The notes under the pieces were generated by a model, which saw nothing but the letters and a program-made list of their open reading frames with translations, did no database searches and was not told the origin of the DNA. A stretch of 64,000 bases of DNA from Amphiscolops sp. MND2022 (taxonomy: Eukaryota). This document shows positions 27,517-64,000 of the stretch, in pieces (the stretch's first letter is position 1; the number at the start of each line of letters is the position of its first letter). Where the stretch lies: contig OZ076409.1 in assembly GCA_964187785.1 (NCBI GenBank), positions 23,934,001-23,998,000 of the forward strand, read 5' to 3'. Both the position numbers and the translations under genes were made by a program.

Positions 27517-27528
27517 GGGCCCGGAGGA
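27517..27528 (+). promoter_or_regulatory. Polypurine-tract-like sequence
   Basis: GGGCCCGGAGGA immediately before the 3' LTR. Confidence 0.6.
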
Positions 27529-31200: not shown

Positions 31201-31457
31201 CGGTGTTCCCAGAGTTGCGCAGCATCTCGCAGGAACAACGGTGCTTGCTCGAAGAGCAAAAATTCTCATTATACCTTTTTGTTAAGTTGACGGCAGTCAT
31301 TATATACAATTACCTGGCAGGCTGATGATATTTATCGTTGAATCCCGGAATAACTTACACAAAAGTGGTAGTCTCAATATTTCCTTTTGATTCTCCATTA
31401 CCAAAGGTTGGTCCCTTTTGCTCAGGCGTTTTACTAGCAGTGCTCTAATTACCTCCA
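28240..31457 (-). repeat. Three tandem ~1074-bp units
   Basis: Period 1070/1074/1074; the second and third are nearly identical, the first is more diverged. Confidence 0.9.
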
Positions 31458-40400: not shown

Positions 40401-41295
40401 AGACTGTATTTTTTCTTTTTGTCTGTGCAAATGTTTCCTAAAATACCAACTCCAAACTGATAATATTTATGTAGAACGTTTATGGAACGTCTATTGAACT
40501 CTGTTCTCCTTTGTCCACTCCACAAAATCCCCTATCTCCTCCACCTTACAATAAATCATATGTTTTGTTGAAGGCTTTGATTAGTAGCGTCATAGTACAA
40601 AAAAAATCGGATGGAGTGTATGCATTTAATATTATTTAAAATTAGCGAATTGTGGTTAAAAATTATGCACAAGTTAAAATACTTAATGAAAATACACATT
40701 GTTTTGTAAATCACATAACACAAAATTCAATTGAAAATTGGTTCAACCCCTAATTTTTCCAAGTAATTTTTTTAGCGATTGTATAATAAATTCAATTTGT
40801 AAATTAAACAATAACTTTTTTTCACTTACCATATAGCAACCTTTAAATTCTCAGTTCTCTAGTGCCTCAAATTCAGGTATTGTTTGTTCGGAACTTAGTT
40901 TACTTGACTTCTTTTTCTGTTGATCGTTTTTTTGAATCCAACAATTTGAAACACATAACTTACTTTCATCTCCTTCTCTGTGAAAACAAATGTAATATCT
41001 GAAGTGTAAGTTCCGCGGCCAAATCTTTTTTTTTCAGAGCAACATACAAAACAAAATGATCAGTTTTTTTCCTGTTTACTAAACATTCCTGCTGAGATAC
41101 AAAGAATTGCAACCGCCGATGGTGCTAATTTTTGATTTGGTCTGAAGCTCAATATCGATTTGGTCAAACGGAACTACATGTTTACATGTTCACCGGTTAA
41201 CAACTACCCTTTTCTAAATACGTGAAGGAATCACACGATCCTTGTCCATCCTTGTGACAACTGCTTAATCCTCGTGGTTTGTTTAGCCTCCAGCG
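31458..41295 (-). repeat. Two tandem ~4.9-kb units, each with five ~355-bp internal subrepeats
   Basis: Colinear homology of 31458-36359 with 36360-41295; AACGGTCnnnACGGTC at ~31925, 32281, 32634, 32986, 33349 and ~36833, 37186, 37539, 37902, 38265. Confidence 0.85.
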
Positions 41296-44200
41296 CTAGG
41301 TGGGCGGGGATTTCACCCCAAAAAAAACTAGAGCGGCGGGTAGGGTCCTGCCGCGAACTCCCAAAACAGCTAACGCTTATAAGAAAAAGCACACCCTCAA
41401 CAGCCTATTTTAAAATCTAACCGTACGATTCTTCTCATTTTTTGCATGCGGCCCTAATTTGCCCATACGAGACGAAGTTCCTGCTGACGTTAAGCCCTAA
41501 AAACATTATAAAAAAAGTTATGGCCAATTTTTGGTCCCCATTAGATGTAAAAATCATGAAATTTTTCATAAAAGGGCAAATATCTCTAAATGCAATAATT
41601 TTTCGATTTTGACTGTGAAACAAGCTCGGAACCTTCATTTCGTGACCGTGGCAATGCACTAAGCACAAAAGACGTAATTTTTTAACATTTTTTGAAAATT
41701 CGACAAACTCGATTTTTTTTTCACTACTATCAGTACCTCATATGTCAAAAACACCTCTGAAAAAGTTTTTTATTTGCTTTAAATTGGAAACCTTGGTATT
41801 CATGGTTTCTGATGGAACCTACTCGCTGCCACAGACTCAACAGTGAGCATCAATTGTGAAATTAAAATTTTTTTCGATGTCATAAGTGTTTCACAAGGTT
41901 TTCATAACTTAGTAATAAATTACAAGTTGATCATTTTCAACATAATATTTTTGTCGAGACATGTCAAATATAGTCTAAATGCTCACGAACGGTCCTACTG
42001 GCAACGTAGGAACCATTTATATTTTAAAAAAAGAATTTTAAAAAATTTTTCACCTGGTCTTCAGTCATTTTTCAGACATTCGGAACTTAACTTAGAAAAT
42101 TTTCGTCTCAAATACCCAATTTTGGTAAAGTCGAAATTTGAAATTCAGCTTTTGAAGCTAAATTATTTACTCTGACGTAACCAGTGGGGCTAATGATACT
42201 CAACAACACAGTTGAGACTGTTACCAGTGGCTCCAATGACATATGAACCGCGATAAGACGTTATTCAGAGCAAAACCCAAACATCGAAGTAAACATCTCG
42301 GAAGCCTGGGATCACAAGGAGAAGTGATTACCTCAAAAAAATACTATTTTTTGTCAATTACTATGTACACAGTATGCGTTGGGCAAGTTTCATTACTAAC
42401 ATGAGGGTTTTGAAGAAATTCGGTTGCTCAAGGCGTGGTATGGGACACAATTCTCTCATATACAACTAATTTTCCACAAACTTTTGGAGTATTATCTCTA
42501 AACGATAACTTAACTAAACTCTTTTTCATACCTATTTCAGTTATTAGGATATAGATGAACCCTGTTGTTGATAAGAAACCCTCAAATGTTATGTTTTTAA
42601 AAAAATTACCTTCGCATGTGTTACATTTGTAGCATGAAAAAAAGCAGACGTCTAAAAATACGCAATTTTACAAAGATAGGATTGCGATTATTGTACCCAA
42701 AAAATTTTAACTGCTTCTAACGCCCTCTTACGTACTGAAAATGATTGAAAAAACCGTTTACAATGCGCACATTAGCTTTTTCTACGTTCCAGGATGCACA
42801 ACTTTAGCACATTTTACATGTAGCTGTTAACTGATTCTTGTGATAGACTTTCAAGTTGGCCTTGTGTCAACTTGGCAAGGCTATCACCACAAAAAACTAT
42901 GAACAAAATTACTTCTCGTTTATAAGACAATGCTGTTGATGATTAACTTCGTGATTATATCCCACCGTTAGTACCATCCAGCAGGTCAGATAACAAATGC
43001 ATTCAGTCTTCGATAAAAACCTATGAAATCAAAAACATTTTTTATCGTTTTTTTTCTAAAAGTAGAATTTTATTTTATTACCAACCTAAAAAACTCTAAC
43101 TTTCACATTCGTTACCGTTATCAGCCACACCAATCGCGTGCGGCCTCGCAGTGTTAGTAGTACAACGCCACATAGCGTTCCGACGCCCACCGTCTGTGGG
43201 CATGCCGAGGCATGCCCTTCGACGACGTATGGCAAATTCGCCCCTGCGAGGTCACTACCGCGGTAGCAGCTAGGTGGGCGGGGAAATTTCACCCCGTTTG
43301 TATTCGGCCGACGGGTAGGGTCCTGGCGGCCGACGATCCGCCTTAAGCTAGCGGTATGTAGCAGAAATTGCAAAAAAAAAGACCTAAAATTTAATCTAAC
43401 CATTAGAATTTGCTCAAAATTTGCATGCGGCCCTCAAATCCTATTGCAAGACGAAGTTCCTGCTGACGCTAAGCGTTCTATAGACTTTATAAAAAGTTAT
43501 GGCCAATTTTTTGTTCAAAATTTCAACATTTTTGGGAAATTTCTAATTTTTCACTTAATATCTCTAAATGTGTTAATTTTTGGACTTTGACTGTGAAACA
43601 AGCTTGGAACCTTCATTTCGTGGCTGTGGCATTGCACTGAACACAAAAGATGTAAAGTTTTTACATTTTTCGAAAATTCGAGATTTTTGAAATTTTTTTC
43701 ACTACTATCAGTACCCCATATGTCAAAAACACATCAGAAAAAAATTTTTATTTGCTTTAAATTGGAAACCTTGGTATCCATGGTTTCTGTCGAAACCTAC
43801 TCGCTGCCAAACACTCAACAGTTTGCATCCAGTGTGAATTTAAAATTTTTTTCGAGGTCTTAGGTGTTTCACAAGGATTTCTCAACTTGGTTTTAATTTA
43901 CAAATTGGTCATTTTGAACACAATATTTTCATCGAGGCTTGTCGGCTATAGTCTTAATGATATAGAACGGTCCCACTGGCAACGTAGGAACCATTTACAG
44001 TAATAGAAAGTTTTAAAAAAATATTTTCACCCGGTCTTCAGTCATTTTTCAGTCATTCGGAACTTAACATAGAAAAATTTCGACCAAAATACCCATTTTT
44101 TATCAGGTCGAAAAATGAAATAAGGATTTTTAAGCAAAATTATTAACTCTGACGTAACCCATGGGGCCTATGATACTCAAAACAACAATTGACACTGGTA

Positions 44201-47200
44201 TCAAAGGCTCCAATAACATATGAGTCGCGATAAGACGTTATTTTGAGCAATACGTCTCAATTGAGGTAAAGATCTCGCAAGCCAGCGATCACTGTGAAAT
44301 GTGATTTCATCAAAAATTTACTCATTTTTGTCAATCACTATGTGCAGAGAGTGCGTAGGATGAGTTTCAGCACTATAATGAGGTTTTTGATGTAATCGGC
44401 CTGCTCAAGGGGGTGTATGAGACATTTTTTTCCCATATAGTACTATATTTTCCAAAATTTTTAGCCCATTATCTCAAAAACCTAACTTCGCAAAATGCTT
44501 TCAACTACTTTATTCTAAGGTTAGAATATGAATGAACACTGTGGTTGATCAGAACCTCTCAATTTTTTTTGTTTTCCGAAAAAATACCTTCGCATGGGTT
44601 ACATTTATGGCAGAAGAGAAAGCAGAAGATAAAAAATACGCTATTTTGCTAAGATAGAAACGCAATGATTGTNNNNNNNNNNNNNNNNNNNNNNNNNNNN
44701 NNNNNNNNNNNNNNNNNNNNNNNNNNNNNNNNNNNNNNNNNNNNNNNNNNNNNNNNNNNNNNNNNNNNNNNNNNNNNNNNNNNNNNNNNNNNNNNNNNNN
44801 NNNNNNNNNNNNNNNNNNNNNNNNNNNNNNNNNNNNNNNNNNNNNNNNNNNNNNNNNNNNNNNNNNNNNNNNATGACTGAAGACCGGCTGAAAAATATTT
44901 TTTAAAACTTTCAATTACTATAAATGGTTCCTACGTTGCCAGTGGAACGGTTCTAGAACATTAAGGCTATAGCCGACAAGCCTCGATGAAAATATTGTGT
45001 TCAAAATGACCATTTTATAATTTGAAACTAAGTTGTGAAATCCTTGTGATTCACCTATGACTCAGAAAAATTTTTTATTTTCACATTGGATGCAAGCTGT
45101 TGGGTGTTTGGCAGCGAGTAAGTTCTATTAGAAACCATGGATACCAAGGTTACCAATTTAAAGCAAATAAAAATTTTTTCTGAGGTGTTTTTGACATATG
45201 GGGTACTGATAGTAGTAAATAAAATTTCAAAAATGTCGAATTTTCGAAAAATGTAAAAACTTTACGTCTTTTGTGTTTAATGCAATGCAATAGACACGAA
45301 ATGAAGGTTCCGAGCTTGTAAAACAGTCAATGTCTAAAAATTACTGCATTTTAAGATATTAGCCAATTTCTAAAAATTTTTTTGAAAATGTTCAATTTTT
45401 CGACCAAAAAACGCCCATAACTTTTTTTATAATGTTTCTATCGCTTAACGTCAGCAGGAACTTCCATTCGTATGCAAATTTTAGGGCCGCATGCAATCTA
45501 CGAACAAATTCTAATGGTTAGTTTTTAAAATCGGCGTTTTTGTGGGCTTTTTGCGCTAAACAGCAAGCTTCATGATTAAGGACGGCCGTCAGGACCCTAC
45601 CCGCCGGCCGGGGACAAACGGGGGGAATAACCCCGCGCACCTAGCCGCTACCGCACTCCAGAGTGCGGAAAAGGCTCATTTGGTATACGTCGTCGAAGGG
45701 CATGCCTCGGCATGCCCACAGACTATGGGCGTCGGAACGCTATGTGACGCGGCGTTGTAATAAGGACATACATTGCGAGGACGTTGGGGATGGCTGGGGA
45801 TGATAACGGTCGAAAAGATAGACGTTATACTTCCTAGTGGTTTTAATTATTCCAATTAGGTTTTTTTAATTATTTGTTTTTATTTTTTGTAAACAAAAAA
45901 AAAGAATTTTCTTCAAGTTCATACATTCTTATCAAACACTGGAAGCAATCGTTAGCTGACCTGATGGAAGTATCTTACGATATGATCGAATTACGAAAAT
46001 AGGCATCGACAGCAAAATCAAACTAACAAATGGTAATTTTGTTTATAGTTTTTTGTGGTGATAGCCTTCCCAAGTTGACACAAGGCCAACTTAAAAGGCT
46101 ATCACAAGATTCAGTTTAAAGCTACATGTAAAATTTTCAAAAAAAGTGCAGTCTGGATTGTAGAAAGAGTACATGTGAGGACTGTGAACGGTATTTCCAA
46201 TCCTATTCGATCCATAAGGTTGCGTTAGAAGTATTTAAAGGGTATTTAGGCACAATCATCGCGTTTCTATCTTAGCAAAATAGCGTATTTTTTATCTTCT
46301 GCTTTCTTTTCTGCCATAAATGTAACCCATGCGAAGGTATTATTTCGGAAAACAAAAAAATGAGAGGTTCTGATCAACCACAGTGTTCATTCATATTCTA
46401 ACCTTAGAATAAAGTAATTGAAAGCATTTTGCGAAGTTAGGTTTTTGAGATAATGGGCTAAAATTTTTGGAAAATACAGTACTATATGGGAAAAAAATGT
46501 CTCATACACCCCCTTGAGCAGGCCGATTACTTCAAAAACCTCATTATAGTGCTGAAACTCATCCTATGCACTCTGTGTACATAGTAATTGACAAAAATAT
46601 GTAAACTTTTGGTGATCTCACATTTCACTGTGATCCCAGGCTTCCGAGATGTTTACTCCGATTTAGAGGTTTTGCTCTGAATAACGTCTTATCCCGACTC
46701 ATATGTTATTGGAGCCACTGGTATCAGTCCCAACGGTGTTGTTGAGTATCATGAGCCCCACTGGTTACGTCAGAGTAAAAAATTTTGCTTCAAGTGCTGA
46801 AATTCAAATTTCGACTTCACCAAAAATGGGTATTCGAGACGAAAATTTTCTAAGTTAAGTTCCGAATGACTGAAAAATGACTGAAGACCGGGTGAAAAAA
46901 TTTTTTTAAAACTTTCTATTACTATAAATGGTTCCTACGTTGCCAGTGGGACCGTTCTATAACATTAAGACTATAGCCGACAAGCCTCGATGAAAATATT
47001 GTGTTCAAAATGACCAATTTGTAAATTAAAACCATGTTGAGAAATCCTTGTGAAACACCTAAGACCTCGAAAAAAATTTTAAATTCACACTGGATGCAAA
47101 CTGTTGGGTGTTTGGCAGCGAGTAGATTCCGACAGAAACCATGGATACCAAGGTTTCCAATTTAAAGCAAATAAAAAATTTTTTCTGATGTGTTTTTGAC

Positions 47201-49623
47201 ATATGGGGTACTGATAGTAGTGAAAAAAAATTCAAAAATCTCGAATTTTCGAAAAATGTAAAAACTTTACATCTTTTGGGTTCAGTGCAATGCCACAGCC
47301 ACGAAATGAAGGTTCCAAGCTTGTTTCACAGTCAAAGTCCAAAAATTAACACATTTTGAGATATTAAGTGAAAAATTAGACATTTTCCAAAAATGTTGAA
47401 ATTTTGAACAAAAAATTGGCCATAACTTTTTATAAAGTTTATAGAACGCTTAGCGTCAGCAGGAACTTCGTCTTGCAATAGGATTTGAGGGCCGCATGCA
47501 AATTTTGAGCAAATTCTAATGGTTAGATTAAATTTTAGGTCTTTTTTTTGCAATTTCTGCTACATACCGCTAGCTTAAGGCGGATCGTCGGCCGCCAGGA
47601 CCCTACCCGTCGGCCGAATACAAACGGGGTGAAATTTCCCCGCCCACCTAGCTGCTACCGCGGTAGTGACCTCGCAGGGGCGAATTTGCCATACGTCGTC
47701 GAAGGGCATGCCTCGGCATGCCCACAGACGGTGGGCGTCGGAACGCTATGTGGCGTTGTACTACTAACACTGCGAGGCCGCACGCGATTGGTGTGGCTGA
47801 TAACGGTAACGAATGTGAAAGTTAGAGTTTTTTAAGTTGGTAATAAAATAAAATTCTACTTTTAGAAAAAAAACGATAAAAAATGTTTTTGATTTCATAG
47901 GTTTTTATCGAAGACTGAATGCAATTGTTATCTGACCTGCTGGATGGTACTAATGGTGGGATATAATCACGAAGTTAATCATCATCAGCATTGTCTTATA
48001 AACGAGAAGTAATTTTGTTCATAGTTTTTTGTGGTGATAGCCTTGCCAAGTTGACACAAGGCCAACTTGAAAGTCTATCACAAGAATCAGTTAACAGCTA
48101 CATGTAAAATGTGCTAAAGTTGTGCATCCTGGAACGTAGAAAAAGCTAATGTGCGCATTGTAAACGGTTTTTTCAATCATTTTGAGTACGTAAGAGGGCG
48201 TTAGAAGCAGTTAAAATTTTTTGGGTACAATAATCGCAATCCTATCTTTGTAAAATTGCGTATTTTTAGACGTCTGCTTTTTTTCATGCTACAAATGTAA
48301 CACATGCGAAGGTAATTTTTTTAAAAACATAACATTTGAGGGTTTCTTATCAACAACAGGGTTCATCTATACCCTAATAACTGAAATAGGTATGAAAAAG
48401 AGTTTAGTTAAGTTATCGTTTAGAGATAATACTCCAAAAGTTTGTGGAAAATTAGTTGTATATGAGAGAATTGTGTCCCATACCACCCCTTGAGCAACCG
48501 AATTTCTTCAAAACCCTCATGTTAGTAATGAAACTTGCCCAACGCATACTGTGTACATAGTAATTGACAAAAAATAGTAATTTTTTGAGGTAATCACTTC
48601 TCCTTGTGATCCCAGGCTTACGAGATGTTTACTTCGATGTTTGGGTTTTGCTCTGAATAACGTCTTATCGCGGTTCATATGTCATTGGAGCCACTGGTAA
48701 CAGTCTCAACTGTGTTGTTGAGTATCATTAGCCCCACTGGTTACGTCAGAGTAAATAATTTAGCTTCAAAAGCTGAATTTCAAATTTCGACTTTACCAAA
48801 ATTGGGTATTTGAGACGAAAATTTTCTAAGTTAAGTTCCGAATGTCTGAAAAATGACTGAAGACCAGGTGAAAAATTTTTTAAAATACTTTTTTTAAATA
48901 TAAATGGTTCCTACGTTGCCAGTAGGACCGTTCGTGAGCATTTAGACTATATCCGACATGTCTCGACAAAAATATTATGTTGAAAATGATCAATTTGTAA
49001 TTTATTACTAAGTTATGAAAACCTTGTGAAACACTTATGACATCGAAAAAAAATTTTATTTCATAATTGATGCTCACTGTTGAGTCTGTGGCAGCGAGTA
49101 GGTTCCATCAGAAACCATGAATACCAAGGTTTCCAATTTAAAGCAAATAAAAAACTTTTTCAGAGGTGTTTTTGACATATGAGGTACTGATAGTAGTGAA
49201 AAAAAATCGAGTTTGTCGAATTTTCAAAAAATGTTAAAAGTTTACGTCTTTTGTGCTTAGTGCATTGCCTCGGTCACGAAATGAAGGTTCCGAGCTTGTT
49301 TCACAGTCAAAATCGAAAAATTATTGCATTTAGAGATATTTGCCCTTTTATGAAAAATTTCATGATTTTTACATCTAATGGGGACCAAAAATTGGCCATA
49401 ACTTTTTTTATAATGTTTTTAGGGCTTAACGTCAGCAGGAACTTCGTCTCGTATGGGCAAATTAGGGCCGCATGCAAAAAATGAGAAGAATCGTACGGTT
49501 AGATTTTAAAATCGGCTGTTGAGGGTGTGCTTTTTCTTATAAGCGTTAGCTGTTTTGGGAGTTCGCGGCAGGACCCTACCCGCCGCTCTAGTTTTTTTTG
49601 GGGTGAAATCCCCGCCCACCTAG
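41296..49623. repeat. Large inverted duplication of 2-kb units around the gap
   Basis: 41296-43269 is a near-identical reverse complement of 47652-49623; 43270-44672 matches the 3' parts of 45645-47651 and 50895-52900. Confidence 0.9.
44673..44872. other. Assembly gap (200 N)
   Basis: N run. Confidence 1.
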
Positions 49624-52600
49624 CGGGAAAAGACTGTGTGGCATTGGGTATTTGGCATACGTCGTCGAAAGGCATGCCTCGGCATGCCTACGGACGGTGG
49701 GCGTTGATGTTTGGATGTGGAAGTCGGCTAAACAAGAAGAAACACTTAAGACAAAAACCATTCAATCTGACTAAAGTTTTAGTATTTTTTGCTGTAGCGA
49801 TTCGGCAAACGCAACTCACACTTGTTTACTTAGTTAAGTCCATCAAACATGTGAACTTTACAAGGCATTTGGCAACGTACATTCCCATCTCCCCTGAGAG
49901 GGAGATGGAATGTACTCAACTGCATAAGATTCTAAGAGAAACAAAGACTTGTATGAAATATATCACAGTTTCTAATAAGTCCCAAATACATCCGCTATAC
50001 ACTACGGGAATGTACACATACTTCAGACATCCCGACTGACCCATCGGAACCTTTTCCAGATTCTTTTCATGCGTTATTGTTTGAAAATTAATGAAAATTA
50101 GGATTTTCACTACTGTGATCACGTGTTATACGTTACTCAAAAGATCATAAGTCAACATCAAGTAAAGATAAAAAGACGTTCTAAACGGCATTTTTCTCGC
50201 CAAGTGCAGGGCTTTCCACAGGCATTCACTTGCAATACTAGTTGTGTGGAAGTTTCTTCACTTTGAGCGGCCTGAACTTTTTTAGAAAAAATTTGAAAAT
50301 ATTTGAAAAACTTCTAAGTCCCATAACTTTTCACTGGGGAATGCTGGAACGCTGAAACCTCGTATTTAGGGCCAAATGGTTTTGTTGGAAGGAAATTGGG
50401 CCAGGGGAGGCCTTTAGGAGAGGGTCTCGAAAAAAATTTGGGCAAAAAACGGTAGAGATAGACTGCATTTGCGAAAAATTTCGCCGGAAAAACGTCAATT
50501 TCTCCACATGTGATTATCCGATTTCCTTCAAACTTACTGTGTGCACTGCTCTAACAGTCTGCTGCAGGTTTGGGTCCTGAAAAATTGTGCTCCGAGCCCT
50601 GTCTGAGGAGATAATGTCACATTTTTGGTCAAAAAGTGAAAATTTCGTCATTTTGGGGTCCGTTTTTTTCATATATCTCGTCTCACAATGAAACCAGGAG
50701 AAAATGACCTCCTACACTTTTTCATTGCTCGCCAATTGGGGGCCACATGCAAATTTTCAGGAAAATCGTACGGGCCAGTTTTGAGATCGTCTCCGATTCG
50801 GGCCATTTGCCGGGAGTATATTTTCACCAGGTCGGCGCAGGACCCTACCCGCGCCTCAGGGCTAAAAGTCCATCTAAAAGACGCGGCCACCTAGCTGCTA
50901 CCGCACTCCAGAGTGCGGGTAAGGCTTATTTGGCATACGTCGTCGAAGGGCATGCCTCGGCATGCCCACAGACGGTTGGCGTTGATGTTGGTATGTGGCG
51001 TTGTTATACAAATCACAGGGTCATGACATAGGCTCAGATCATGGGTTACGGAAGACTGATAACGGAAGAGAAAACAAATGTGATAGTATTCAAAGGTTAG
51101 AAGTTGTTATTTATTATTTAGAAATAAAATTATTTACCAAATAATAAACAAAAATGTCTTCGAGTTCATAGGTATTTTTTCAAACTCTGCATGCTATCGT
51201 CAGCTGACATGATGGAAGATACTAACGGTAGTATACAATCACGAAAATAGGCATCGACAGCAAAATCCGATTAACAAATGGTAGTTTTGTTTATAGTTTT
51301 TGGTGGTGATAGCCTTCCCAAGTTGACACAAGGTCAACTTAAAAGGCTATCACAAGATTCAGTTTAAAGCTACATGTACAATTTTCAAAAAATGTGCAGT
51401 CTGGATTGTAGAAAGAGTACATGTGAGGACTGTGAACGGTATTTCCAATCATATTGGGTCCATAAGGTTGCGTTAGAAGTGTTTAAAGGATATTTAGGCT
51501 CAATCATTGCGTTTCTATCTTAGCAAAATAGCGTATTTTTTATCTTCTGCTTTCTCTTCTGCCATAAATGTAACCCATGCGAAGGTATTTTTTCGGAAAA
51601 CAAAAAAAATTGAGAGGTTCTGATCAACCACAGTTTTCATTCATATTCTAACCTTAGAATAAAGTATTTGAAAGCATTTTGCGAAGTTAGGTTTTTGAGA
51701 TAATGGGCTAAAAATTTTGGAAAATATAGTACTATATGGGAAAAAAATGTCTCATACACACCCTTGAGCAGGCCGATTACATCAAAAACCTCATTATAGT
51801 GCTGAAACTCATCCTACGCACTCTGTGCACATAGTGATTGACAAAAAATGAGTAAATTTTTGATGAATTCACATTTCACAGTGATCGCTGGCTTGCGAGA
51901 TCTTTACCTCAATTGGGACGTATTGCTCAAAATAACGTCTTATCGCGACTCATATGTTATTGGAGCCATTGATACCAGTGTCAATCGTTGTTTTGAGTAT
52001 CATAGGCCCCATGGATTACGTCGGAGTTAATAATTTTGCTTGAAAATCTTAATTTCATTTTTCGACCTGACAAAAAATGGGTATTTTGGTCGAAATTTTT
52101 CTAAGTTAAGTTCCGAATGACTGAAAAATGACTGAAGACGAGGTGAAAAATTTTTTTAAAACTTTCTATTGCTATAAATGGTTCCTACGTTGCCAGTAGG
52201 ACCGTTCTAGAACATTAAGGCTATAGCCGACAAGCCTCGATGAAAATATTGTGTTCAAAATGACCAACTTGTAAATTAAAACTAAGTTGTAAAATCCATG
52301 TGAAACGCTTATGACCCAAAAAAAATTTTTATTTTCACATTGGATGCAAACTGTTGGGTGTTTGGCTGCGAGTAGGTTCCGACAGTAACCATGGATACCA
52401 AGGTTTCCAATTTAAAGCAAATAAAAATTTTTTTCTGATGTGTTTTTGACATATGGGGTACTGATAGTAGTGAAAAAAATTCAAAAATCTCGAATTTTCG
52501 AAAAATGTAAAAACTTTACATCTTTTGTGTTCAGTGCAATGCCACAGCCACGAAATGAAGGTTCCAAGCTTGTTTCACAGTCAAAGTCCAAAAATTAACA

Positions 52601-55279
52601 CATTTCGAGATATTAAGTGAAAAATTAGAAATTTCCCAAAATTATTTAATTTTTGAACAAAAAATTGGCCATAACTTTTTATAAAGTTTATAGAACGCTT
52701 AGCGTCAGCAGGAACTTCGTCTTGCAATAGGATTTGAGGGCCGCATGCAAATTTTGAGCAAATTCTAATGGTTAGATTAAATTTTAGGTCTTTTTTTTGC
52801 AATTTCTGCTACATACCGCTAGCTTAAGGCGGATCGTCGGCCGCCAGGACCCTACCCGTCGGCCGAATACAAACGGGGTGAAATTTCCCCGCCCACCTAG
52901 CGCTGCAGGCTTGTGTCAAAATAGGGCCGCTTAAAGAGATTGAGTTGATAAATTGAGAAGTCAATGAAGGTGATTTTCAAAGAAAAACTGTGATGAGGTT
53001 TTCAATCAAAAGTTGGTATTGCTCGTTTTGGCTAAGTACCTTGGGTTAATTTAGTTTCCAATCCTGGTGATCGGAGCAAATATGGAAGATAAAATGTGTT
53101 ACTTATTGAACTTGCGTACTCAGAGAGAAGCCTAGTAGGTGGTTTCATGACAAATGTCATCAAGTTTTCCACGGTGTGAAATAGGAGGTCGCTTTTGGAA
53201 CACTTAAAAGATCTCCAAGTCCTCGTACCCCTTTTTTTTACAGAAGTCAAACCAAAACCCCAAGGAGGAGTCGGAAACTAATTTGTTTATGTTTGTTTCG
53301 ACAGTGACATAAAATGGTACAGAAAAAGGCATTTAGTAGTTTTGACCTTTGGTGAGTACATTCTCATCTCCCCCGATGGGGAGAGATGAGAATGTACTTA
53401 CGTGTTTCTCTATAACTGATGGTTTATACCATCAACACTTATCAAAAGAAGTGAAACAACTTTGAAAGACCTTTGCACTAGACAACTGTAATTGAGGATA
53501 AGTTGAGGTTCATTGCATGTATTCCAATGAGTTTTTGACGAGACTTACGTTCCATTTACACACTTTGACTTCTTAACCTCAAATCAAGCTCCCATTTAAA
53601 GAATCATAAGTCAACATCAAATTACGATAAAGAGACGTTCTAAACGGCATTTTTCTCCCCAATTACTGGGCTTTCCACATGCATCCACTTGCAATCCTAG
53701 TTGTGTGGAAGTTTCTCGACTTTGGGCGGCCTGAAGTTAAAAAAAAATTTTGAAAAAATTTCAAAAATTTTCTAAGTTCAACAAATTTTACCCGGAGAAT
53801 GCTATAAAGCTAAAACTGCGGCAAATGACCCCAATCGTTTTGTTGAGACGAAATTAGCCCATGGGTTACCTACTGGGCGTCTTTTTAGAAAAAATTTGTG
53901 CTGAAACGGCAGAGATAGACTAATTTGTCATTTTTCAAACAAAATTACTCATAAACTCCGCATTTTTCTCTTTCCGGCGATGTTTTACAGAAACTTTTAC
54001 CAATACCTATTTGTTGCACAATCACGGACAACAAAAACAAAAAGGTATAGAATTGTGCTGAGAAGCTTGTGTATGGAAATATGGGCCATTTACTACAAAC
54101 TCACTGTTAGTGAATTGTTGTTCATTTTTTTTGTGATTTTTCAAACTCTTATAAGTCCATGTCAAGTTGTCGGAAACGGGCGTTCTATAGCTCATTTTCC
54201 TCATCACTTCATGCACTCTCCGCATGCATTCACTTGCAATCTAAGTTGTGTGGACGAAGTTTGACTTTTTTGGCAAAAAGTGTTAGGTCCCGAAAAAAAA
54301 GTCCTATTTGTACAAAAAAAACTGTCCAAAAAGCACATAATTACATCTTAAAAACGTCTTAAAAAGCCTTGGATAGTGTTGCTGCACTACATAGCGGCAA
54401 TTGAACAGCTCTGGGGCTGAATAAAAGCAATTCGGTAAGTTTTAGATGAGACTTAGCTTTCAATTTAGGTTTTTTCTTAATTTCACCACATAGCAAGCAC
54501 ACACTCAAATTGTCATAAGTCAACGTCAGGTTAAGCTACAGAGTCGTTCTATAGCTCATTTTTCTCGTCTATTCAAGCACTTTCCACATGCATTCACTTG
54601 CAATACTAGTTGTGTGGAAGTTCCTTGACTTTGGGAAGCTTGAAGAAAAAATTATTTTTTTTTGAAATTTTTTTGTAAAAATTCTAAGTCATTTATCTTT
54701 TACCCGGGGAATGCTGGAACGCTGAAACTTCGGCAAATGGGCCAAATGGTTTTGCTGGGAGGTAATTCAGCCAGGGGAGGACTTTAGACGAGGTTCTAGA
54801 AAGAAATTTGGCCGAAAAACGGCAGAGTCATACTAGTGTGTCAAAATTTTTTTCAAAAAATCGATGGTTTTTCGGTTATTTCTCAGTCAATTTTCATCCG
54901 ATCTCAACCAAAATTTGTCTACGAGTTCTACTCGAAGTGCCAAACAACTTTACCTATACAAACTTTTTTCGATCCGAGCACCCTGGAAAAAGTTATAGCC
55001 GATCAAAAATAAAAAAGTCAAAAAATGGCCATTTTTCACTCAGAAAATGTCATTTTTGACCAACTTTTTGAGTTTTCCCGGAAAAATGGCAGTAGGAATT
55101 AGTTCTTGTATTGGAATTTGGGAGCTACATGCAAAATTTGAGCAAAATCGTACGGGTGGTTTTCGAAATCAGCATTACACTGGTGCGTTTCTAACAGTAA
55201 GTTTTCCATAAGGGGTGCCGCCAATCAGGACCCTCCCCGAGGCGGCGGAAGAGGTTGGGAGAGCGCCCCGACCACCTAG

Positions 55280-58200
55280 CCCGGGATGTACGGGCGTCGT
55301 TTGGGTATGTATTTGGTATACGTCGTCGAAGGGCATGCCTCGGCATGCCCACAGACGGTGGGCGTTGATGTAAAGTGTGTGGCGTTGACGTTAATTAAAC
55401 TAAAATATGACGTTTCAGCTTCCATAATGAAATGTAATATTCAATTTGAACTTTTATAAATCTGTTACAAACATTCCAATTAATACCATTTGTTAGGTAA
55501 ATAGGTTTTCTGGCATTTAGGACACATTTTGTATGGAAAAAACCATTTTTTTCAACAATTTGCTCACTATGATTCTAATAACGGAATCATGACGGCATAG
55601 TTTTTGTCGTTGATACACTGTTGATGAAGCTCTAATTGGTACTAATGCAATATATACCTACCCAAAAACACTCTTGATTAACGATTTCAGAAGGATAGCG
55701 CTTCCAAGTTGACACCAGGCCAACTTGAAAGGCTATCAAAATGTAACGGTTATGTTGGTTGAGGTTTCGGAGTCTCTGAAACTATATGGAAAAACTTTAA
55801 TTTTTAATAATAGTCCATAATAGTCGACAAAAGTACGCCGAAAGACATTTTCAAACCAAAAACCTATCCTGTGTCCAACGGTTTGGACTTCCGGTGCTAT
55901 ATACCCCGTTACCCCCCACAAGGTTTCATGACTATGTTCACTATTGCAGACCGTCGAAACACCTAATAGATACTTTTATCTACAAAATACTAAACATTTG
56001 AACCCAATAGACACAAAATTTGACCATTTCCGGTCGTTTACGGTACCAGGGGGACTTTAGGGTCAACATAACGGTTATTTCTGAATGCTCGCCTCACGTC
56101 CTCCCTTACCTCATATAGTGTCCAAGCACCTATTACCACTCCTTCCGCACCTAAATACACTTGAAAAAGTATAAAAATTGCAATTTTACCCACATAACGG
56201 TCATTTCCGGTCCCAAGGGGTAACGGGGGGTGACTGAAACTATATCCCCCAACTCGTCTCATTGAGTACTACAATAAGTTACCTGACGTTCCCCGGCTGG
56301 GACCGACCCTTTGGGCTCAAAAAGTGACATTTCCGGTCACATAGCGGTTAGGCTGGGGGGCCAAGTCGGTAACGGTGATAGATAGCGGAAATCTGTTTGC
56401 CCCCCTGAAGGCACCATATCATGGGTATGAAACCTTGTAGTAGTGATGGACACGATTGCTCCACGCGTTCACGAGATATTTACCCCTCAATGCCCATTTT
56501 ACGGTTTTAGCACTAAAAAAAGGAGGCGGAAGCCCCATTTCCCGCTAACGGGTTGGTCCAGGGGGTCCCAAACTACATGTTTCCGATAGGTCCTTGTCTA
56601 AACCTACTTTTGTTATATAACACCCGACGCGCTACTCCCACTCCTTCACACCGGAAATAGCGGTAAAACGTGGAGGGGGGCATTTTACACGCTCATATAA
56701 CGGTCATTTCCCGTCCGGGGGGTAAATTGAGTTTGGCAAACTACTTGTCCCCCACTTCGTCTCAAGGCCGTCCCCAATACATCACCTAACGACCCCGCGC
56801 TCAGACGACTCCTTCCGGGTCAAAAACCTGCGTTTCCGGAAAAATAACGGTTTGAGCGGGGGGGTACTTGGAGATAGCTTCAAGATAGAAAAATTTGGTT
56901 TGGACCTTCGGGGCCCCTGCAACACGGTCAAGAAACTTTTAGCAGGGTTCCAAAGTTTTAAATCAACAGAAAAAAAGTTATGCGACCGGATATAACTTTT
57001 ACCCCCAAAATGACCCCTAACGGTCGCCCGTGTACCCCGTCAAAATATTTCAATCACGCTGGAACCCGGTGGGGGGCGCTAATTTTCGGAAAATCTGGTG
57101 GGGGCCGCTCCAACTTTAAAATCCTATGGTTAGATCACGAGATCCCGAAATTTTTGCAAGATTTCCTATCGATAGCTATTAGAGTTAAAATCGGATTCAG
57201 GACCCTACCCGAATCCTCCAATATATTTGTTGGGGTTACCCCCCCGCACCTAGCTGCTACCGCGGGTGGGTGTAGATATGGAGGGTGTTTGGTATACGTC
57301 GTCGAAGGGCAAGCCTCGGCATGCCCACGGACGGTGGGCGTTGATGTAAAGTATGTGGCGTTGACGTAAATTAAACTAAAACGTGAGGTTTCAGCTTCCA
57401 TAATGAGACCTAATAAAAATGTTGATCTTCTTTTTCATTGTTATTTAGTTTTAGTCAATACCATTTATTGTTTTATTCAATTTGGTGGCATTAGGACACA
57501 TTTTTAATGGAAAAAATCAACTTTGAAAACAATTTGTTAACTAATATTTTTATAACGGAATTATCACGACATCGTTTTTGCCGTTGGCAAACTGTTGATG
57601 AAGCTCTAATTGGTATTAATGCAACATATACCTACCCAAAAACACTCTTGATTAACGATTTTAGAAGGATAGCCCTACCAAGTTGACACCAGGTCAACTT
57701 GAAAGGCTATCAAAATGTAACGGTTATGTTGACTGAAGCATTGGAGGTCCCTGAAAATAATGTGAAAAAATTTTATTTCCGAAAAAAGTCCGTATTAGTT
57801 GATATTCTGACGATTCAACCCACAAAACTATGCCTAAAGACATTTTGAAACCAAAAAACCTATTCTGTGACCAACGGTTTGGACTTCCGGTGCTATATAC
57901 CGTTACCCCCCACAAGGTTTCATGACTATGTTCACTTCTGGAGGCCTTTAAAACACCTTCCAGATACTTTTATCCATAAAATACCAAACATTTGTACCCA
58001 ATAGACACAAAATTTGGCCATTTCCGGTCGTTAACGGTACCAGGGGGACTTTGGGGTCAACATAACGGTTATTTCCGAATGCTCTCCTCACGACCTCCAT
58101 TACATCATATAGTGTCCAAGCACCTATTACCACTCCTTCCGCACCTAATTGCCCTTCAAAAAGTACAAAAATCGCAACTTTACCCACATAACGGTCATTT

Positions 58201-59247
58201 CCGGTCCCGAGGGTTAACGGGGGGTGACTGAAACTATATCCCCCAACTCGTCTCATTGAGTACTACAATAAGTTACCTAACGTTCCCCGGCTGGGACCGA
58301 CCCTTTGGGCTTAAAAAGTGACATTTCCGGTCACATAGCGGTTAGGCTGGGGGGCCAAGTCGGTAACGGTGATAGATAGCGGAAATCTGTTTGCCCCCCT
58401 GAAGGCACCATATCATGGGTATGAAACCTTGTAGTAGTGATGGACACGATTGCTCCACGCGTTCACGAGATATTTACCCCTCAATGCCCATTTTACGGTT
58501 TTAGCAGTAAAAAAAGGAGGCGGAAGCGCCATTTCCCGCTAACGGGTTGGTCCAGGGTGTCCCAAACCACATGTTTCTGATAGGTCCTTGTCTAAACCTA
58601 CTTTTGATATATGGCACCCGACGCGCTACTCCCACTCCTTCACACCGGAAATAGCGGTAAAACGTGGAGGGGGGCAATTTTCCCGCTCATATAACGGTCA
58701 TTTCCTGTCCGGGGGGTAAACTGAGGTTGACAAACTACATGTCCCCCACTTCGTCTCAAGGCCGTCCCCAAAACATCACCTAACGACCCCGCGCTCAGAC
58801 GACTCCTTCCGGGTCAAAAACCTGCGTTTCCGGAAAAATAACGTTTTGGGCGGGGGGGTACTTGGAGATAGCTTCAAGATAGAAAAATTTGGTTTGGACC
58901 TCCGGAGCCCTTGCAACACGGTCAAGAAACTTTTAGCAGGGTCCCAAAGTTTTAAATCAACAGAAAAAAAGTTATGTGGCCCAATATGAATTTTACCCCT
59001 AAAATGACCCCCTAACGGTCGCCCGTGTGGCCAGAAAAAAATTTTCCGGGGTATGGAACCCGGTGGGGGGCGCTAATTTTCGGAAAATCTGGTGGGGGCC
59101 GCTCCAACTTTAAAATCCTATGGTTAGATCACGAGATCCCGAATCCTATCCAAATTTTCTTAACGAAAGCTGGCAGCACTGAACTCGGATTCAGGACCCT
59201 ACCCGAATCCTCCAAAAATTTTGTTGGGGTTTCCCCCCCGCACCTAG
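55280..59247 (+). repeat. Two tandem ~2-kb units of a distinct subfamily rich in AACGGT / TTTCCGG motifs
   Basis: 55280-57253 and 57254-59247 are colinear and nearly identical over their 3' ~1.3 kb. Confidence 0.9.
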
Positions 59248-61219
59248 AAAAAATTGGGCGCCCTGTGGCGCTAATGGGCATACGTCGTCGAAGGGCATGC
59301 CTCGGCATGCCCACGGACGGTGGGCGTTGATGCGAGTATGTGGCGTTGACGTTACAGAAGTAACGTTGAGCTGATGGTGTGTAAGGTGGTTAGTAGGGAA
59401 AGTTTGGAGTGAAAGAGAAAGAAACCAGTCTAAATATTAGTTGGCTTGCGCGACAGCCTAGAAAACATTGTATAAAAATAAAATTGCGCCATTGTGCGTG
59501 TCATTTAGCGGGTACATTCTCATCTCCCCCACAAAGGGGGAGATGGAATGTACGCAACAGTTTTGTGCTATCGGATGAATAAGACGGTATCAAAACGGTA
59601 TCAAAGTGGGTCAAAAGACTCTAAATGGCGTTGCTGCACTAGACAACGGCAATTTACCAGCTCTGGGGTTGACTGGACGTATTCCGATTTGTTTTCAAAG
59701 AGACTTACGTTTTTTGATTTTTTAGCACATAGGAAGCTCACACTAAAAATGTCATAAGTCAACGTCAGGTTAAGCTACAGAGTTTTATAATAGCTCATTT
59801 TCCTCGTCTATTCAAGCACTTTCCACATGCATTCACTTGCAATACTAGTTGTGTGGAAGTTTCTTGACTTTGGGAGGCCTGAAATTGAAAAAAAAAATTT
59901 TGAACATTTTTTGAAAAAATTCTAAGTCATTTATCTTTTATTCGGGAAACGCTGGAACGCTGAAACTGCGGCAAAAGGGCCAAATGGCTTTTTTGGGATG
60001 TAAACCGGCCAGGGGAGGCCTTTAGGCGAGGACCTGGAAAAAAATCTGGGCAAAAAACGGCAGAGATAGACTGGGTTTTCCAAAAAAGTCGACAAAATGC
60101 GCCAAATTTCCGATTATTACTCATCCAATTTTTATCCGATTTGGACGAAATTTTGTTCACGCACTCCCCTTTTAGTGCTGAGTAATATTGCTTTTCACGT
60201 GCGACCCGCTCCGAGCACCTCGAAAAAAGTTATGGACCGTCAAATTGGAAAAAGACAATAAAAACGCAACAATGGGCATTTTAAACGCAATTTTGGTCAA
60301 CATAAAATATTTCAATCGAAAAACGCCACTAGGAAAAAGTTCTTATAATCTTTCAAGGAGGCCCTGTGCCAAATTTGAGCGAATCCTACAGGCTGGATCC
60401 TGAGATCTGAGAATTGTGATAGGTTTTGCATAGTATGAATTCCGGTTAACAGCCGCCCGGGGCCCCTCCCCCAGCGGCAAAGATTTTGCTGAAAAAAAAA
60501 ATTCCCGGCCACCTAGACGTGGACGGCAAAACGAAGAGTCCAGTAGGCGGGAAAGTGTTAATAAGGAAAGTTACTCACGTGATTGGAGAAGTCGTCGTCA
60601 GTCGGGTGTTGGTTGGTGGTTAATTAGTGGTTAATGATGTTAGAGAATGCGGAGGAGTTGTCGTTACATAAGTTTTCTCAAAATCAAAAAAATAGAAAAT
60701 CGCACGGTGTCCACCCTCTGTAGTAGAACTTTGTGCGATACTCAACAAAGTAACCTAATGCAAAGAAGACTGGAACCACGCTTATCGTCGATTCAACTTA
60801 GTCAGACTGTTTTACCCAAACCTTATTGATAACTTAATGTAACGAAAATCAGAATGATGCTAAAACTTTAGGTGTAATTAAATGGAACTGTTCATGATTA
60901 AATCCTAATTTCTTAAAGCTGCAATGAGTTGGAAAAAAGTTGAATGAAGTTTTAAAAAGTTTCAATTAGGCCTAAAAACTTTTTAGTTACGTTTTTTAGC
61001 CAGATAGTTCCTTGTAAGAAACTGTCGATAGTTCCCTGGAATTCCCTGGAGAAACTGGAATTTATTTATCAAATAATACGAACAAAAAATGTGTACAAAC
61101 GAAAACAAAAATGCATCTTATTTGGAGTTTTAATTAAAGTGAACAACTGAAGGCACTCAGGTCTCCCAAATTGTTCACAATAACAGCGCAGGAACTTTAT
61201 TTGCATGAGTTTCACTTGG

Positions 61220-62278
61220 CTAGTGACTGGAGGCACTCAGGTCTCCCAAGCCACTAACCACTGCAACACTGCTTCCACTTCCTGATGTGACAGCTTCTCC
61301 TCTGTACTTCTTCCCAAGTTGCTGGTCTGTTAAGGGTCCTTCTGGATGCAGAGCGGTGACGTGGAAGTTCTTGTTCTCGACCGCCGTTCCTTCTTCGTCA
61401 GACGCCGGCTTAAACCAACCCGAAATCCTAAAACCCTCCCCTGCATTGACTAACCCAACCATTTCCTGAACAATTGTATCAATCCTAAAGCGATCCAACC
61501 TATCCGAATCTGACTTCAATTTCCTAGCTTCTTGCGTTATAAAAAAATCCGTAGTAAATGAGGAATAAATAGTTAAAAAGTCTTCGTTATTTACGCGCTG
61601 GTTCAATTCCGGACAAGTAAATTCAATTAAAAGCACCCAAGTTTTTTTAGCGAGTGTCTCGACACAACCGCACGGCTCGTGGTACGTCTGACCGTCGCAT
61701 AGTTTGCCAGCACAGACATTGTCTGCGATGACGGCAGAGTCAACCGTGACGTGGTTAGAGACGAACGAGAAAAACCTAAATTCCAGAGATGTTCCTTCGA
61801 CGTCGTATGGCGGCAGCGTGATCAACTGATTGAAGGTCGTTGCGGGTATCAGCGGCTCCCTGGTTGATATAAGTGCTGTTCCTCCTCTTGCAAGTTGTCC
61901 TTCCAGGCTTGGTTTGATGATGGTAACGGCCGATCCAGGTTTGAGTTGTTCAAAGTACCGGAAGATGATCCTTGATTCCTCACTGTTAGCTGTGAAAATA
62001 GCTATAACTGCTGACGTTCCGGGTACTCCTAGCACGATAAAACGGTGGTACTTCTCAAGCTCCATCTTCCTCCCTGCTTGTCCGTATCCTTTTGTTTGTT
62101 TAGTGTAAGCAATCTTCTTCGTAGGCTGGCTTACGTAGAGTAGCACAGCTTGCATCATAGATAATCGAGGCGTTGTCGGTGCCGGGCATAGTAAGTCTTC
62201 AAGTGCAATTAATGCGAAGTTCACGAGTAGAGCTCGAGCTTGAGCGATCGTGAGAGAAGCTTTGAAAAAGCCAGGCAT
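61220..62278 (-). CDS. Intact 352-aa protein with Cys cluster (CAGKLCD...PCGC), possibly tandem OB-fold/ssDNA-binding
   Basis: ATG at 62278 just after a TTTTGCAG acceptor; beta-strand-like hydrophobic pattern; GFRISGWFK motif. The fold assignment is a guess. Confidence 0.65.
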   Translation of the reverse strand: MPGFFKASLTIAQARALLVNFALIALEDLLCPAPTTPRLSMMQAVLLYVSQPTKKIAYTKQTKGYGQAGRKMELEKYHRFIVLGVPGTSAVIAIFTANSEESRIIFRYFEQLKPGSAVTIIKPSLEGQLARGGTALISTREPLIPATTFNQLITLPPYDVEGTSLEFRFFSFVSNHVTVDSAVIADNVCAGKLCDGQTYHEPCGCVETLAKKTWVLLIEFTCPELNQRVNNEDFLTIYSSFTTDFFITQEARKLKSDSDRLDRFRIDTIVQEMVGLVNAGEGFRISGWFKPASDEEGTAVENKNFHVTALHPEGPLTDQQLGKKYRGEAVTSGSGSSVAVVSGLGDLSASSH

Positions 62279-62381
62279 GCTTAATCTGCAAAAGCTATAC
62301 AAAAGGTTAGACAATTGCAGGAAGGAATTTCCAGGACGACCGTTACAACTGTACACTATATACAAATACAGAATTAAAGAC

Positions 62382-62558
62382 TGATAAAACTAAGTTACTA
62401 CTGGATTGAAGATAAATCTTTGATAAAGCTAATTTACTACTGGATTCAGAATAAATCTTTGATAAAGCTAATTTACTACTAGATTCAAGATAAATTTTTG
62501 ATAAAGCTAATTTACTACTGGATTCGAGATAAATCATTTATAAAGCTAATTTGCTACT
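62382..62558 (+). repeat. 39-bp tandem repeat, ~4.5 copies
   Basis: Unit TGATAAAGCTAATTTACTACTGGATTCAAGATAAATCTT. Confidence 0.9.
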
Positions 62559-63358
62559 AAAGGAAATGAATATTAAAAGCTAACTATCTTCAGCTCAACT
62601 GTACAGATTCTAACTACTTGCAGGCAAACAGTATTTACATTAAGGTCCCTTCAGCTAAACAAAAGGAAAAGAATGAACAAGAAATTCCAATGAAATCTGA
62701 TCGGATTTTTGATTATACTGGACTGAATTTTGACATTGATAACAAATATTAAAAACAAATACGATTGGATCTGAAATCGCAATTTAATAAAGTTATACGT
62801 TGAATAAAAATTACAGACAATTTTAGAAAAATTCCAATTTTTGGAAAAATTTTTTTGAATGCGTAATTAGATTTCTGTCATTCTTTTCGTTTTGTTGAGC
62901 TGAAAGGTTTAATTTTTTTGGTTTTTTTGTATTTTATATTTTTTTTGGTTTTTTAGGAGGGGTTTTAAATTTTTTTTTGCTTTTTCGGGGAACTTTTGTA
63001 ATTTTTTTGAGAATTTGTGTTTTCTGTTTCAACCACAAAGGCGCGCAAATTGTGAGACAGCTGCAGTAGAAGACGAAATGAGCGCAAGAAGTACACGAAG
63101 TAATGGCAAGCAGAACATCCCGAAATCAACTGACAGCTGGCAATCCTGTTTCCAGGCCAAATGTCCTCTTGTCGATCTCCGTGCTTCCACAGCCTGAAAA
63201 GAACCGTTCTAACAAGAATAAAGGAAACAAAAAAAACGACAAAGAGGACGGGGGGTCAGTTTAAGCCACTAAAGGGCTTAAACTGACAGAAAAGCGAAAA
63301 ATGGCAAAAAGAGCGAAAATGATTGAAATTGAGGTTGAAATGCATGAAGAAAGGCATT

Positions 63359-63979
63359 TTAGCCGTAAAATTTCACGATTTTTCCTATCGACATTTTCAG
63401 TGAGTCCGCGGTCTGATGTGCTGGATCAAAGGGCACGAAGGAGGAGTTTGACAAGTTCAAATCAAAATACTCGAAATTCTGTTTTATCATATCATTTATC
63501 TCTTTGTCTAGATTGCTTGAGAAGAGTCGCTCAGGGTCCCCTTTTTTTCTGTTTGTATTGTGAGGTAATTTGAAAGCATCTTCTTTTTTCCTGCGACATA
63601 GAACGACAACAAATCGACCGGGACAATTTCTCTGCATACGTAGTAACTTTCTTATAACAACGCGAGGGGTAAGAGGTAAACAATTCGGGGGTGCATGAGG
63701 CGGTAAAGTGAGGGAATTCATTATTGCATCGAAGTATATGACTAGAGTATGGGGTCTGAATTTCAAAGCATCTGTAAACAACTTCTCCAAATTCTTCTCG
63801 TTATTGGGGTGATTGAATCGAGCTCCTCCTTCGGCGAAATTTTTATAAACTATGTGATGTGGAACTTGGGGACAATGGGCCCGGATGTTGCAGGGCCCCT
63901 CGCAGTTGCAAGACTCCCACGGCTGCCTCTCAAAAGAGACGAGGTTGCTAGCTCCTACGAGGGCGACTCTTGAAACCAT
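63359..63979 (-). CDS. SGNH/GDSL-hydrolase-like protein, 206 aa
   Basis: VALVGASN (block I Ser), AEGG (II), LVIYFDAIMNSL (III), DPAH (block V DxxH). Confidence 0.75.
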   Translation of the reverse strand: MVSRVALVGASNLVSFERQPWESCNCEGPCNIRAHCPQVPHHIVYKNFAEGGARFNHPNNEKNLEKLFTDALKFRPHTLVIYFDAIMNSLTLPPHAPPNCLPLTPRVVIRKLLRMQRNCPGRFVVVLCRRKKEDAFKLPHNTNRKKGDPERLFSSNLDKEINDMIKQNFEYFDLNLSNSSFVPFDPAHQTADSLKMSIGKIVKFYG

Positions 63980-64000
63980 ACTTTCAACCTGAAGAGCAGG

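Follow-up and report, generated by a model that had tools for sequence, protein, structure and literature searches.

Divergent Helitron-like units that probably insert at the joints of earlier units in the genome of Amphiscolops sp. MND2022

Units of the window, their autonomous partner and their ends

We analyzed a stretch of 64,000 nt from the genome of Amphiscolops sp. MND2022 (assembly GCA_964187785.1, contig OZ076409.1, positions 23,934,001 to 23,998,000; hereafter, the window). Its right-hand part is a chain of repeat units, many of them bearing a conserved 20-nt palindrome, that ends in a transposase-encoding element. In the window and nine other regions, the units of such chains measure 1.0-14.8 kb and are joined at CAC/CTAG, where the slash marks a joint or an insertion point. 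On the transposase strand, a unit reads GTG ... palindrome, variable segment, CTAG. The short units are non-autonomous Helitron-like elements and, as the genome patterns described below suggest, were probably inserted preferentially at the joints of earlier units, thereby building scrambled arrays. The units are listed in window coordinates together with an example of the 5′ end (left terminal sequence, LTS) and the second open reading frame (ORF2) of the autonomous element.

45641..47647, minus strand: non-autonomous unit, 2,007 nt, GTG...CTAG, with CTAG at 45641-45644 and the subfamily tip at 45645-45685
47648..49619, minus strand: non-autonomous unit, 1,972 nt, tip at 47652-47691
49620..50890, minus strand: non-autonomous unit, 1,271 nt
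50891..52896, minus strand: non-autonomous unit, 2,006 nt
52897..55275, minus strand: palindrome-less unit of the same kind, 2,379 nt
55276..57249, minus strand: non-autonomous unit, 1,974 nt
57250..59243, minus strand: non-autonomous unit, 1,994 nt
59244..60512, minus strand: non-autonomous unit, 1,269 nt
60513..64000, minus strand: 3′ part of a 13,675-nt autonomous element that runs on to G000:C1:24008187
61220..62278, minus strand: ORF2, 352 aa, predicted OB-fold (RPA/MCM10-like) single-stranded DNA (ssDNA)-binding protein
47575..47647, minus strand: example LTS, with the GTG start, a G4...C4 hairpin, and then a covarying stem round a conserved loop motif
45590, 49569, 50838, 52845, 55226, 57198, 59192: further sites of the 5′-end loop motif (reversed at 41343 and 43318)

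Unit 45641-47647 shows 98% identity to copies in two distant arrays, the tip of unit 47648-49619 was found identical in two further arrays, and a 98% identical copy of unit 59244-60512 with the same tip lies 14 Mb distant.

The autonomous element extends from 60513 onward and is coded on the minus strand, and its transposase open frame of 2,377 codons (C1:24000047-24007180, minus) has the order Rep-PIF1-GIY-YIG. The frame matches PF14214 (E 5e-10) and PF05970 (E 6e-11), Rep motifs 1-3 are visible, and the C-terminal GIY-YIG match (E 4e-4) falls just under the Pfam cut-off. On its sequence, a Rep domain of the HUH type with two Tyr residues fused to a PIF1 helicase assigns the element to the Helitron-like superfamily. 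ORF2 gave no match in Pfam or PDB sequence searches, and its single-sequence fold was unusable (predicted local distance difference test, pLDDT, of 32). A model built from 18 sequences reached pLDDT 81, with a best Foldseek E of 1.7e-4 to RPA OB folds and, against MCM10, Z 9.3 and a root-mean-square deviation of 3.8 over 115 aligned residues; the product is thus predicted to be an OB-fold ssDNA-binding protein. Four autonomous families with ~30% mutual identity occur in these arrays in one orientation (the 2,350- and 2,603-codon families as one copy each). The palindrome is found in three of them and is absent from the family of the window, whose 3′ end does not fold (z 0.39); none of three palindrome-less 3′ ends tested for folding folds.

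The initial annotation regarded the palindromic hairpin as the left-end recognition structure of a rolling-circle element. It is indeed an end structure of such an element, but the autonomous element codes on the opposite strand, and therefore the hairpin lies near the 3′ (right) end relative to the transposase frame. Every autonomous copy with located ends showed the same polarity. Moreover, the motif of the 5′ end lies, with its stem, upstream of the open frame in the ~40% identical metagenome-contig relative L217, and the coding strand gives the better fold of the 5′ end (z −3.1 vs −2.1). The 5′-end stems covary: pairing of at least 5 bp was seen in 53 of 97 variants, compared with 9% of mismatched-arm controls.

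Solo and array-edge units retain CTAG next to the variable segment, and therefore units begin at CTAG rather than at the hairpin, an alternative that the initial annotation had proposed to check. Where the flank is genomic, the palindrome end keeps its CTAG (10 of 181 hairpins; 32 ends genome-wide). Among 225 3′ ends, the terminal tetranucleotide was CTAG in 205, CTGG in 15, and CTTG or CTCG in 5, some of the 5 being target bases; the CTGG end follows its subfamily. Two insertions could be compared with empty sites. For a solo unit in a Gypsy element, the empty-site relatives read CTTG/GTC (the key was found in eight of 11 other copies), and for an eight-unit array in another repeat they read mostly CTAG/TTG (nine of 11 shown; five with CTAG). 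The filled sites equal the empty site plus GTG...CTNG. A four-base target duplication was considered and rejected: at locus L179, CTTG precedes GTG while the element's own end is CTAG, so the tetranucleotide is no duplication, and CTGG goes with the subfamily. After genomic 3′ ends (n = 30), the first flanking base was G, A or T in all 30 and the second was T in 29. The 5′ end lay within the first stretch for three of these 30 loci, and 20 were examined over a longer stretch. Non-unit 5′ flanks ended in CTNG in 13 of 15 cases, of which about three may be unrecognised unit ends. The target rule is thus CTNG/(G/A/T)T, abbreviated CTNG/DT, without target duplication. The joint CTAG/GTG meets this rule, and therefore each joint is a perfect target; as the initial annotation had supposed, it is also the sequence that a circle junction would have. 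With regard to the 12-16 nt asymmetric terminal inverted repeats of the HLE2 group of Helitron-like elements (HLEs), an 8-nt match was seen by eye in some subfamilies.

At L186 / L161 (G000:C4:63901824), a young copy retains its last 177 nt only. CTAG is joined exactly at the target, and the cut 5′ side bears a 9-12 nt copy of the target start. Because the CTAG side is precise and the truncated 5′ side carries this copy, the locus suggests that the 3′ end is joined first. Short pieces with the 3′ end only were also seen at L175, L183, L187, and L193.

The variable segment and the 3′ palindrome

Between the palindrome block and CTAG lies a segment that varies in sequence and in length (22-49 nt), with 71 distinct forms among 122 junctions. 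The initial annotation read this variable stretch between two conserved blocks as possibly captured from the target or as a guide-like region, and ancient 3′ read-through to the next CTNG may indeed have made some tips. However, the segment tracks its own unit. Over 146 junctions with both units known, the adjusted mutual information (AMI) between segment class and own unit body was 0.68 (reached in 0 of 1000 within-array permutations), compared with 0.18 for the other neighbor (44 of 1000). Mean segment identity was 0.84 for the same body with a different neighbor and 0.63 for a different body with the same neighbor. The exact segment recurs in another unit, including units of other arrays, for 98 of 156 units, and many segments have a common core with small changes between them. 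Genome-wide, the tip of 49620-50890 gave 33 matches at up to one mismatch and that of 57250-59243 gave 76; 30 of 30 inspected matches of each were element ends. Of these 60 inspected matches (of 109), all 60 lie directly after CTAG and 59 before a palindrome, so the check suggested in the initial annotation, matching the segments against the genome, yielded no free-standing match at the inspected loci of the two segments. Unique spacers matching DNA outside the arrays, a hallmark of RNA-guided or spacer-capture systems, were absent among the inspected genome-wide matches of these two segments, and the autonomous frames hold no RNA-guided nuclease domain. A guide or capture role is thus very improbable; the variable segment is the inherited tip of each subfamily. 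Among 33 segment types, 12 fold at z < −2 relative to mononucleotide shuffles, with a second small hairpin near CTAG.

The palindromes of the window are given below, those on the minus strand belonging to the array right of the gap at 44673-44872.

45698..45717, minus strand: 20-nt palindrome in the 3′ end (right terminal sequence, RTS) of unit 45641-47647; 19 of 20 bases match a p53 site
47704..47723, minus strand: 20-nt palindrome of unit 47648-49619
49670..49689, minus strand: 20-nt palindrome, variant with outer pair A...T, seen in 25 of 206 sampled copies
50948..50967, minus strand: 20-nt palindrome of unit 50891-52896
55331..55350, minus strand: 20-nt palindrome of unit 55276-57249
57307..57326, minus strand: 20-nt palindrome of unit 57250-59243, one mismatch
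59293..59312, minus strand: 20-nt palindrome of unit 59244-60512
43198..43217, plus strand: 20-nt palindrome of the oppositely oriented unit 41300-43273

These seven stem starts and the reversed copy agree with the eight hairpins of the initial annotation, as do the A...T pair at 49670, the single mismatch at 57307, and the gap of 45-53 nt from CTAG to the stem (stem start at +46 to +54). Its placing of the junction midway between two hairpins holds roughly, the conserved loop motif of the other end finishing 37-41 nt before CTAG, whereas its border motif TTGGyATACG, taken literally, fits five of the eight copies only. Five window junctions of the same kind (52897, 60513, 41296, 29310, and 28240) are without this hairpin. 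A 22-nt pattern of the palindrome core is matched exactly at least 4,388 times in the 1.07-Gb genome, with no match for the reversed-pattern control; its abundance is far above chance. In fetched DNA, 206 copies comprised 173 with a perfect G...C outer pair, 25 with a perfect A...T pair, and 8 damaged ones. Over 29 family representatives, a 35-nt block around the palindrome, reaching from 9 nt before the 20-mer to 6 nt after it, is invariant except for the outer pair and one flank base.

By analogy with the Helraiser terminator (PMC5876387), we lean slightly towards the view that the palindrome acts on the displaced single strand as a signal for stopping or recognition, in which case the spacer of 22-49 nt up to CTAG would be free to drift by subfamily. 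Weighing against this role, 19 of 46 family representatives, and the autonomous family of the window, are without the palindrome, and therefore it is not required for stopping at CTAG.

A less likely candidate role is a double-stranded site for a host p53-family protein, which would link the elements to DNA-damage or germline signaling. A p53 response element consists of two RRRCWWGYYY decamers with a spacer of 0-13 (PMC3485254). Here, the spacer is 0, 19 of 20 bases match, both outer-pair variants preserve the match, and such a site is expected about once per Mb in shuffled unit DNA. The host genome has p53-family genes (PF00870), a 2-nt loop is too short for the 9-bp stem, and in several families the end reaction does not need the palindrome. 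However, the likeness was noticed post hoc and is uncorrected for the many motifs that a palindrome could match. The invariance exceeds the 20-mer on both sides, and the single non-consensus base is itself invariant. The outer pair also co-varies (25 A...T, with no A...C or G...T among the 206), though this could reflect one event, and a search of the 19 representatives without the palindrome, allowing up to 3 mismatches, revealed no other p53-like site. The p53-site reading concerns the palindrome alone and is compatible with the array mechanism set out below. A tandem cluster of ~19 p53-domain (PF00870) matches, many with internal stops, lies at G000:C2:2333777-2360487; further p53-family matches were found on C4, C13, and C26.

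Growth of the arrays

At 90% body identity, 215 complete units fell into 66 families in scrambled order. Among 206 adjacent unit pairs, 3 are 99% identical and 156 are under 80%; rolling-circle concatemers were rejected as the main source of the arrays, near-identical adjacent pairs being so few. Copies at least 99% identical had a neighbor in common in none of 26 pairs, and copies at 97% identity had none in common in 144 of 169 pairs. In one end class, 877 ends abut CAC, that is, another unit, vs 32 with a non-C third flank base, which are plainly genomic; this count excludes flanks with C but not CAC. Twins without common neighbors, together with this excess of joints, fit the insertion of one unit at a time into a joint. 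In ordinary DNA, target-like sites occur at about 4 per kb. Single empty sites were found to be filled by small arrays of 3-8 mixed units, and the autonomous partners lie inside the same arrays with the same ends.

The units were likely copied singly by the divergent Rep-helicase-GIY-YIG transposase and likely inserted preferentially at the joint between earlier units. One nick-site rule would serve for start (CTNG/GTG), stop (CTAG/DT), and target choice, and the joint CTAG/GTG would therefore be the circle junction and the best target at once. Each insertion would create a new joint, and hence a new target, and the extra preference for joints may come from the adjoining 5′-end stem-loops.

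Several observations weigh against this interpretation. Of 126 units, 84 have their best match within their own array, a local family enrichment that free targeting of any joint does not predict. Same-family adjacency exceeds the shuffle in two of three arrays (p 0.01-0.03), and the 6-Mb array described below is zoned into 2-kb and 1.3-kb units. For the 57250 unit, two of its 29 other copies are preceded by the same upstream unit (99% identity or more), and therefore some pairs of units are mobilized or duplicated as dimers; within families the unit ends are mosaic, and therefore recombination has occurred. Disappearance of solo copies could also make the array excess look larger than it was. 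Furthermore, the end at which transposition starts was judged from the direction of the ORF, and in Helitrons this direction can be reversed.

An alternative retains the same elements and the six-base target rule without any preference for joints: arrays seeded by a few insertions would grow like satellites, through unequal exchange, gene conversion, or rolling-circle multimers, and solo units would be lost. The local enrichment and zones, the mosaic ends, the 25 of 169 pairs at 97% identity with at least one common neighbor, and the two near-identical dimers are consistent with such growth, as are the tandem Helitron arrays cited for plants and bats (PMC5876387). However, the youngest twins share no neighbor, repeated unit-order triplets are no commoner than after shuffling for three arrays (p 0.07-1.0), identity between adjacent units is rare, the units are spread over many families, and mixed small arrays sit in single empty sites. 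Thus, we regard satellite-like growth as an unlikely main cause and favor insertion at joints. Nevertheless, given the local enrichment, the mosaic ends, the neighbor-sharing pairs, and the two dimers, local hopping, read-through of the CTAG end, or recombination also contributes to the arrays.

In the C1 array, all 12 samples taken between 70.6 and 75.8 Mb contained same-strand joints, compared with 0 of 8 samples outside. Its matches span 70.46 to 76.5 Mb (~6 Mb), with a small opposite-strand patch near 76.05 Mb. More arrays lie at G000:C2:102.1-103.9 Mb, C3:2.3-3.4 Mb, C9:3.40-3.47 Mb, and C4:77.1-77.3 Mb, several near contig ends and in both orientations. A centromere model with one array per chromosome was not supported by the palindrome match list, which has one dominant array, on C1, the chromosome that was mapped.

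The remaining array members of the window are as follows.

44873..45640, minus strand: 5′ part of a unit cut by an assembly gap
43274..44672, plus strand: 5′ part of a unit cut by an assembly gap
41300..43273, plus strand: complete unit in opposite orientation, 98.9% identical to 47648-49619
28244..41299, plus strand: further palindrome-less array members, with 1,070- and 1,074-nt units at 28244-30387 and longer units beyond

The long palindrome-less units contain internal tandem repeats of 353-363 nt (window 32254-38376). The arrays that flank the 200-N gap at 44673-44872 run in opposite directions. The 26-kb contig at 18673-44672 lies between two 200-N gaps, its array being opposite to that right of 44872, and scaffolding may have introduced this inversion. 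Window 562-5501 and 18824-27833 contain Gypsy-type pol frames and a BEL/Pao long terminal repeat (LTR) element, with 308-nt LTRs that are 98.7% identical. No Rfam match was obtained at E up to 0.5 in window 41000-64000.

Transposase lineage and comparison with known systems

A profile-free search found 409 representative related proteins at E ≤0.001, including 46 at E <1e-30. Many of these relatives have the same Rep motif and GIY-YIG, and therefore the lineage is not confined to one genome. Among 20 long relatives scanned, 14 had GIY-YIG; DUF6570 was absent from the query transposase and from all 20, and was present in four other Rep-helicase proteins (RepHels) of the same genome (L209, L210, L211, and L214). 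Motif 2 reads EFQ-x(4-7)-N-x-P-H-x-H in the present elements, and the relatives share a motif 2 without the RG of HLE1 and HLE2. A branch of 1.49 (support 99.9/100) separates the query lineage from the Helraiser-like and DUF6570-bearing RepHels of this genome. The final tree was unrooted, with 38 sequences, 236 columns, and five HLE2-like references; it took 38 of 76 rows, near-duplicates and every second database match being left out, and a first tree had left out 14 of 58 proteins that were without the anchor motif. The relatives were chosen by likeness to the query, and the references were few. Judged from these sequences, the transposases form a long branch of their own, separate from the HLE1 and HLE2 references included, and a long-branched offshoot of HLE2, in sister or nested position, may also be compatible with the unrooted tree.

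In the metagenome relatives L215-L217, a short interruption, likely an intron, separates the main frame from a GIY-YIG-like part downstream, in which the catalytic positions seem to have changed. The genome also has Helraiser-like HLE1 and DUF6570-bearing HLE2 elements (among L212, L209-L211, and L213), one of which matches JAB and AP endonuclease and another OTU. L214, on the small contig G000:C1762, is a RepHel with an HLE1-like motif 2 and DUF6570 that lies far from the others in the tree, and it is possibly foreign DNA.

The elements are Helitron-like, lying outside HLE1 by 5′ end, target, and tree position and outside HLE2 by target and DUF6570. With HLE1 and Helraiser (PMC4778049, PMC5876387, PMC11417382), the elements have in common the Y2 (two-Tyr) Rep with PIF1 helicase, the 3′ CTAG or CTGG, a 3′ palindrome, the lack of target duplication, an RPA-like ORF downstream of the transposase, and head-to-tail joints. 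They differ in their 5′ GTG (TC in HLE1), their target CTNG/DT (A/T in HLE1), their conserved palindrome at 34-61 nt from the 3′ end (10-12 nt for the HLE1 hairpin), and their motif 2 (EWQKRG in HLE1), as well as in the C-terminal GIY-YIG, the mixed-family arrays, and the separate branch of the Rep tree. HLE2 elements (Helentron, Helitron2, FoHeli; PMC11417382, PMC5148889) similarly have hairpins at both ends and a large transposase, whereas the present elements have no DUF6570, no AP endonuclease, and no T/T insertion. The same two papers describe one moss HLE2 family that carries GIY-YIG, unclassified clusters reported by HELIANO, and a longer target preference, TNAT, for FoHeli1/2.

The third-clade Helitrons of Paramecium (PMC13085455) resemble the present elements in lying outside HLE1 and HLE2, in sequence-specific targeting with fixed orientation, and in an end tetranucleotide that echoes the target. 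They differ in a CCAA end and a telomeric-repeat target. No mention of GIY was found in the text or supplements examined, and a motif search in seven supplements of that paper gave no match. IS91 (PMC5876387, PMC10288648) is likewise a Y2 HUH system that inserts in fixed orientation beside a tetranucleotide without duplication; however, it is bacterial and lacks a helicase, unlike the present elements with PIF1, GIY-YIG, and the OB-fold ORF. Replitrons (PMC10288648) share the HUH domain, the insertion of the left end just 3′ of a short target, and short direct repeats flanking the copy, but are Y1 and without helicase, whereas the repeated tetranucleotide here is half target and half element. 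Maize Helitrons have a known tendency to insert near other Helitrons. An earlier account of mixed-family Mb arrays joined at a self-regenerating target was not found, which, given incomplete literature coverage, is a weak negative.

Taken to its furthest extent, a reading that we hold doubtful, the material would represent a widespread third Helitron lineage with a fused GIY-YIG, an IS91-like nick rule, and self-joint targeting, in which unrelated families jointly build arrays of up to 6 Mb. Its shared 3′ module would plant thousands of p53-family sites and thereby couple mobilization to the germline or to DNA damage. The largest array might have a chromosomal role, for example as a centromere. 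Searches for TC...CTRR or TT ends would overlook these elements, and the intact, recently copied autonomous elements with a defined target make Helitron target choice directly testable. If the joints are truly preferred, this would be a single-strand transposon of eukaryotes that creates safe landing sites for itself and builds Mb arrays cassette by cassette. Such insertion would offer a candidate tool for site-specific integration without double-strand breaks, and would constitute a direct route from a transposon to satellite-like DNA.

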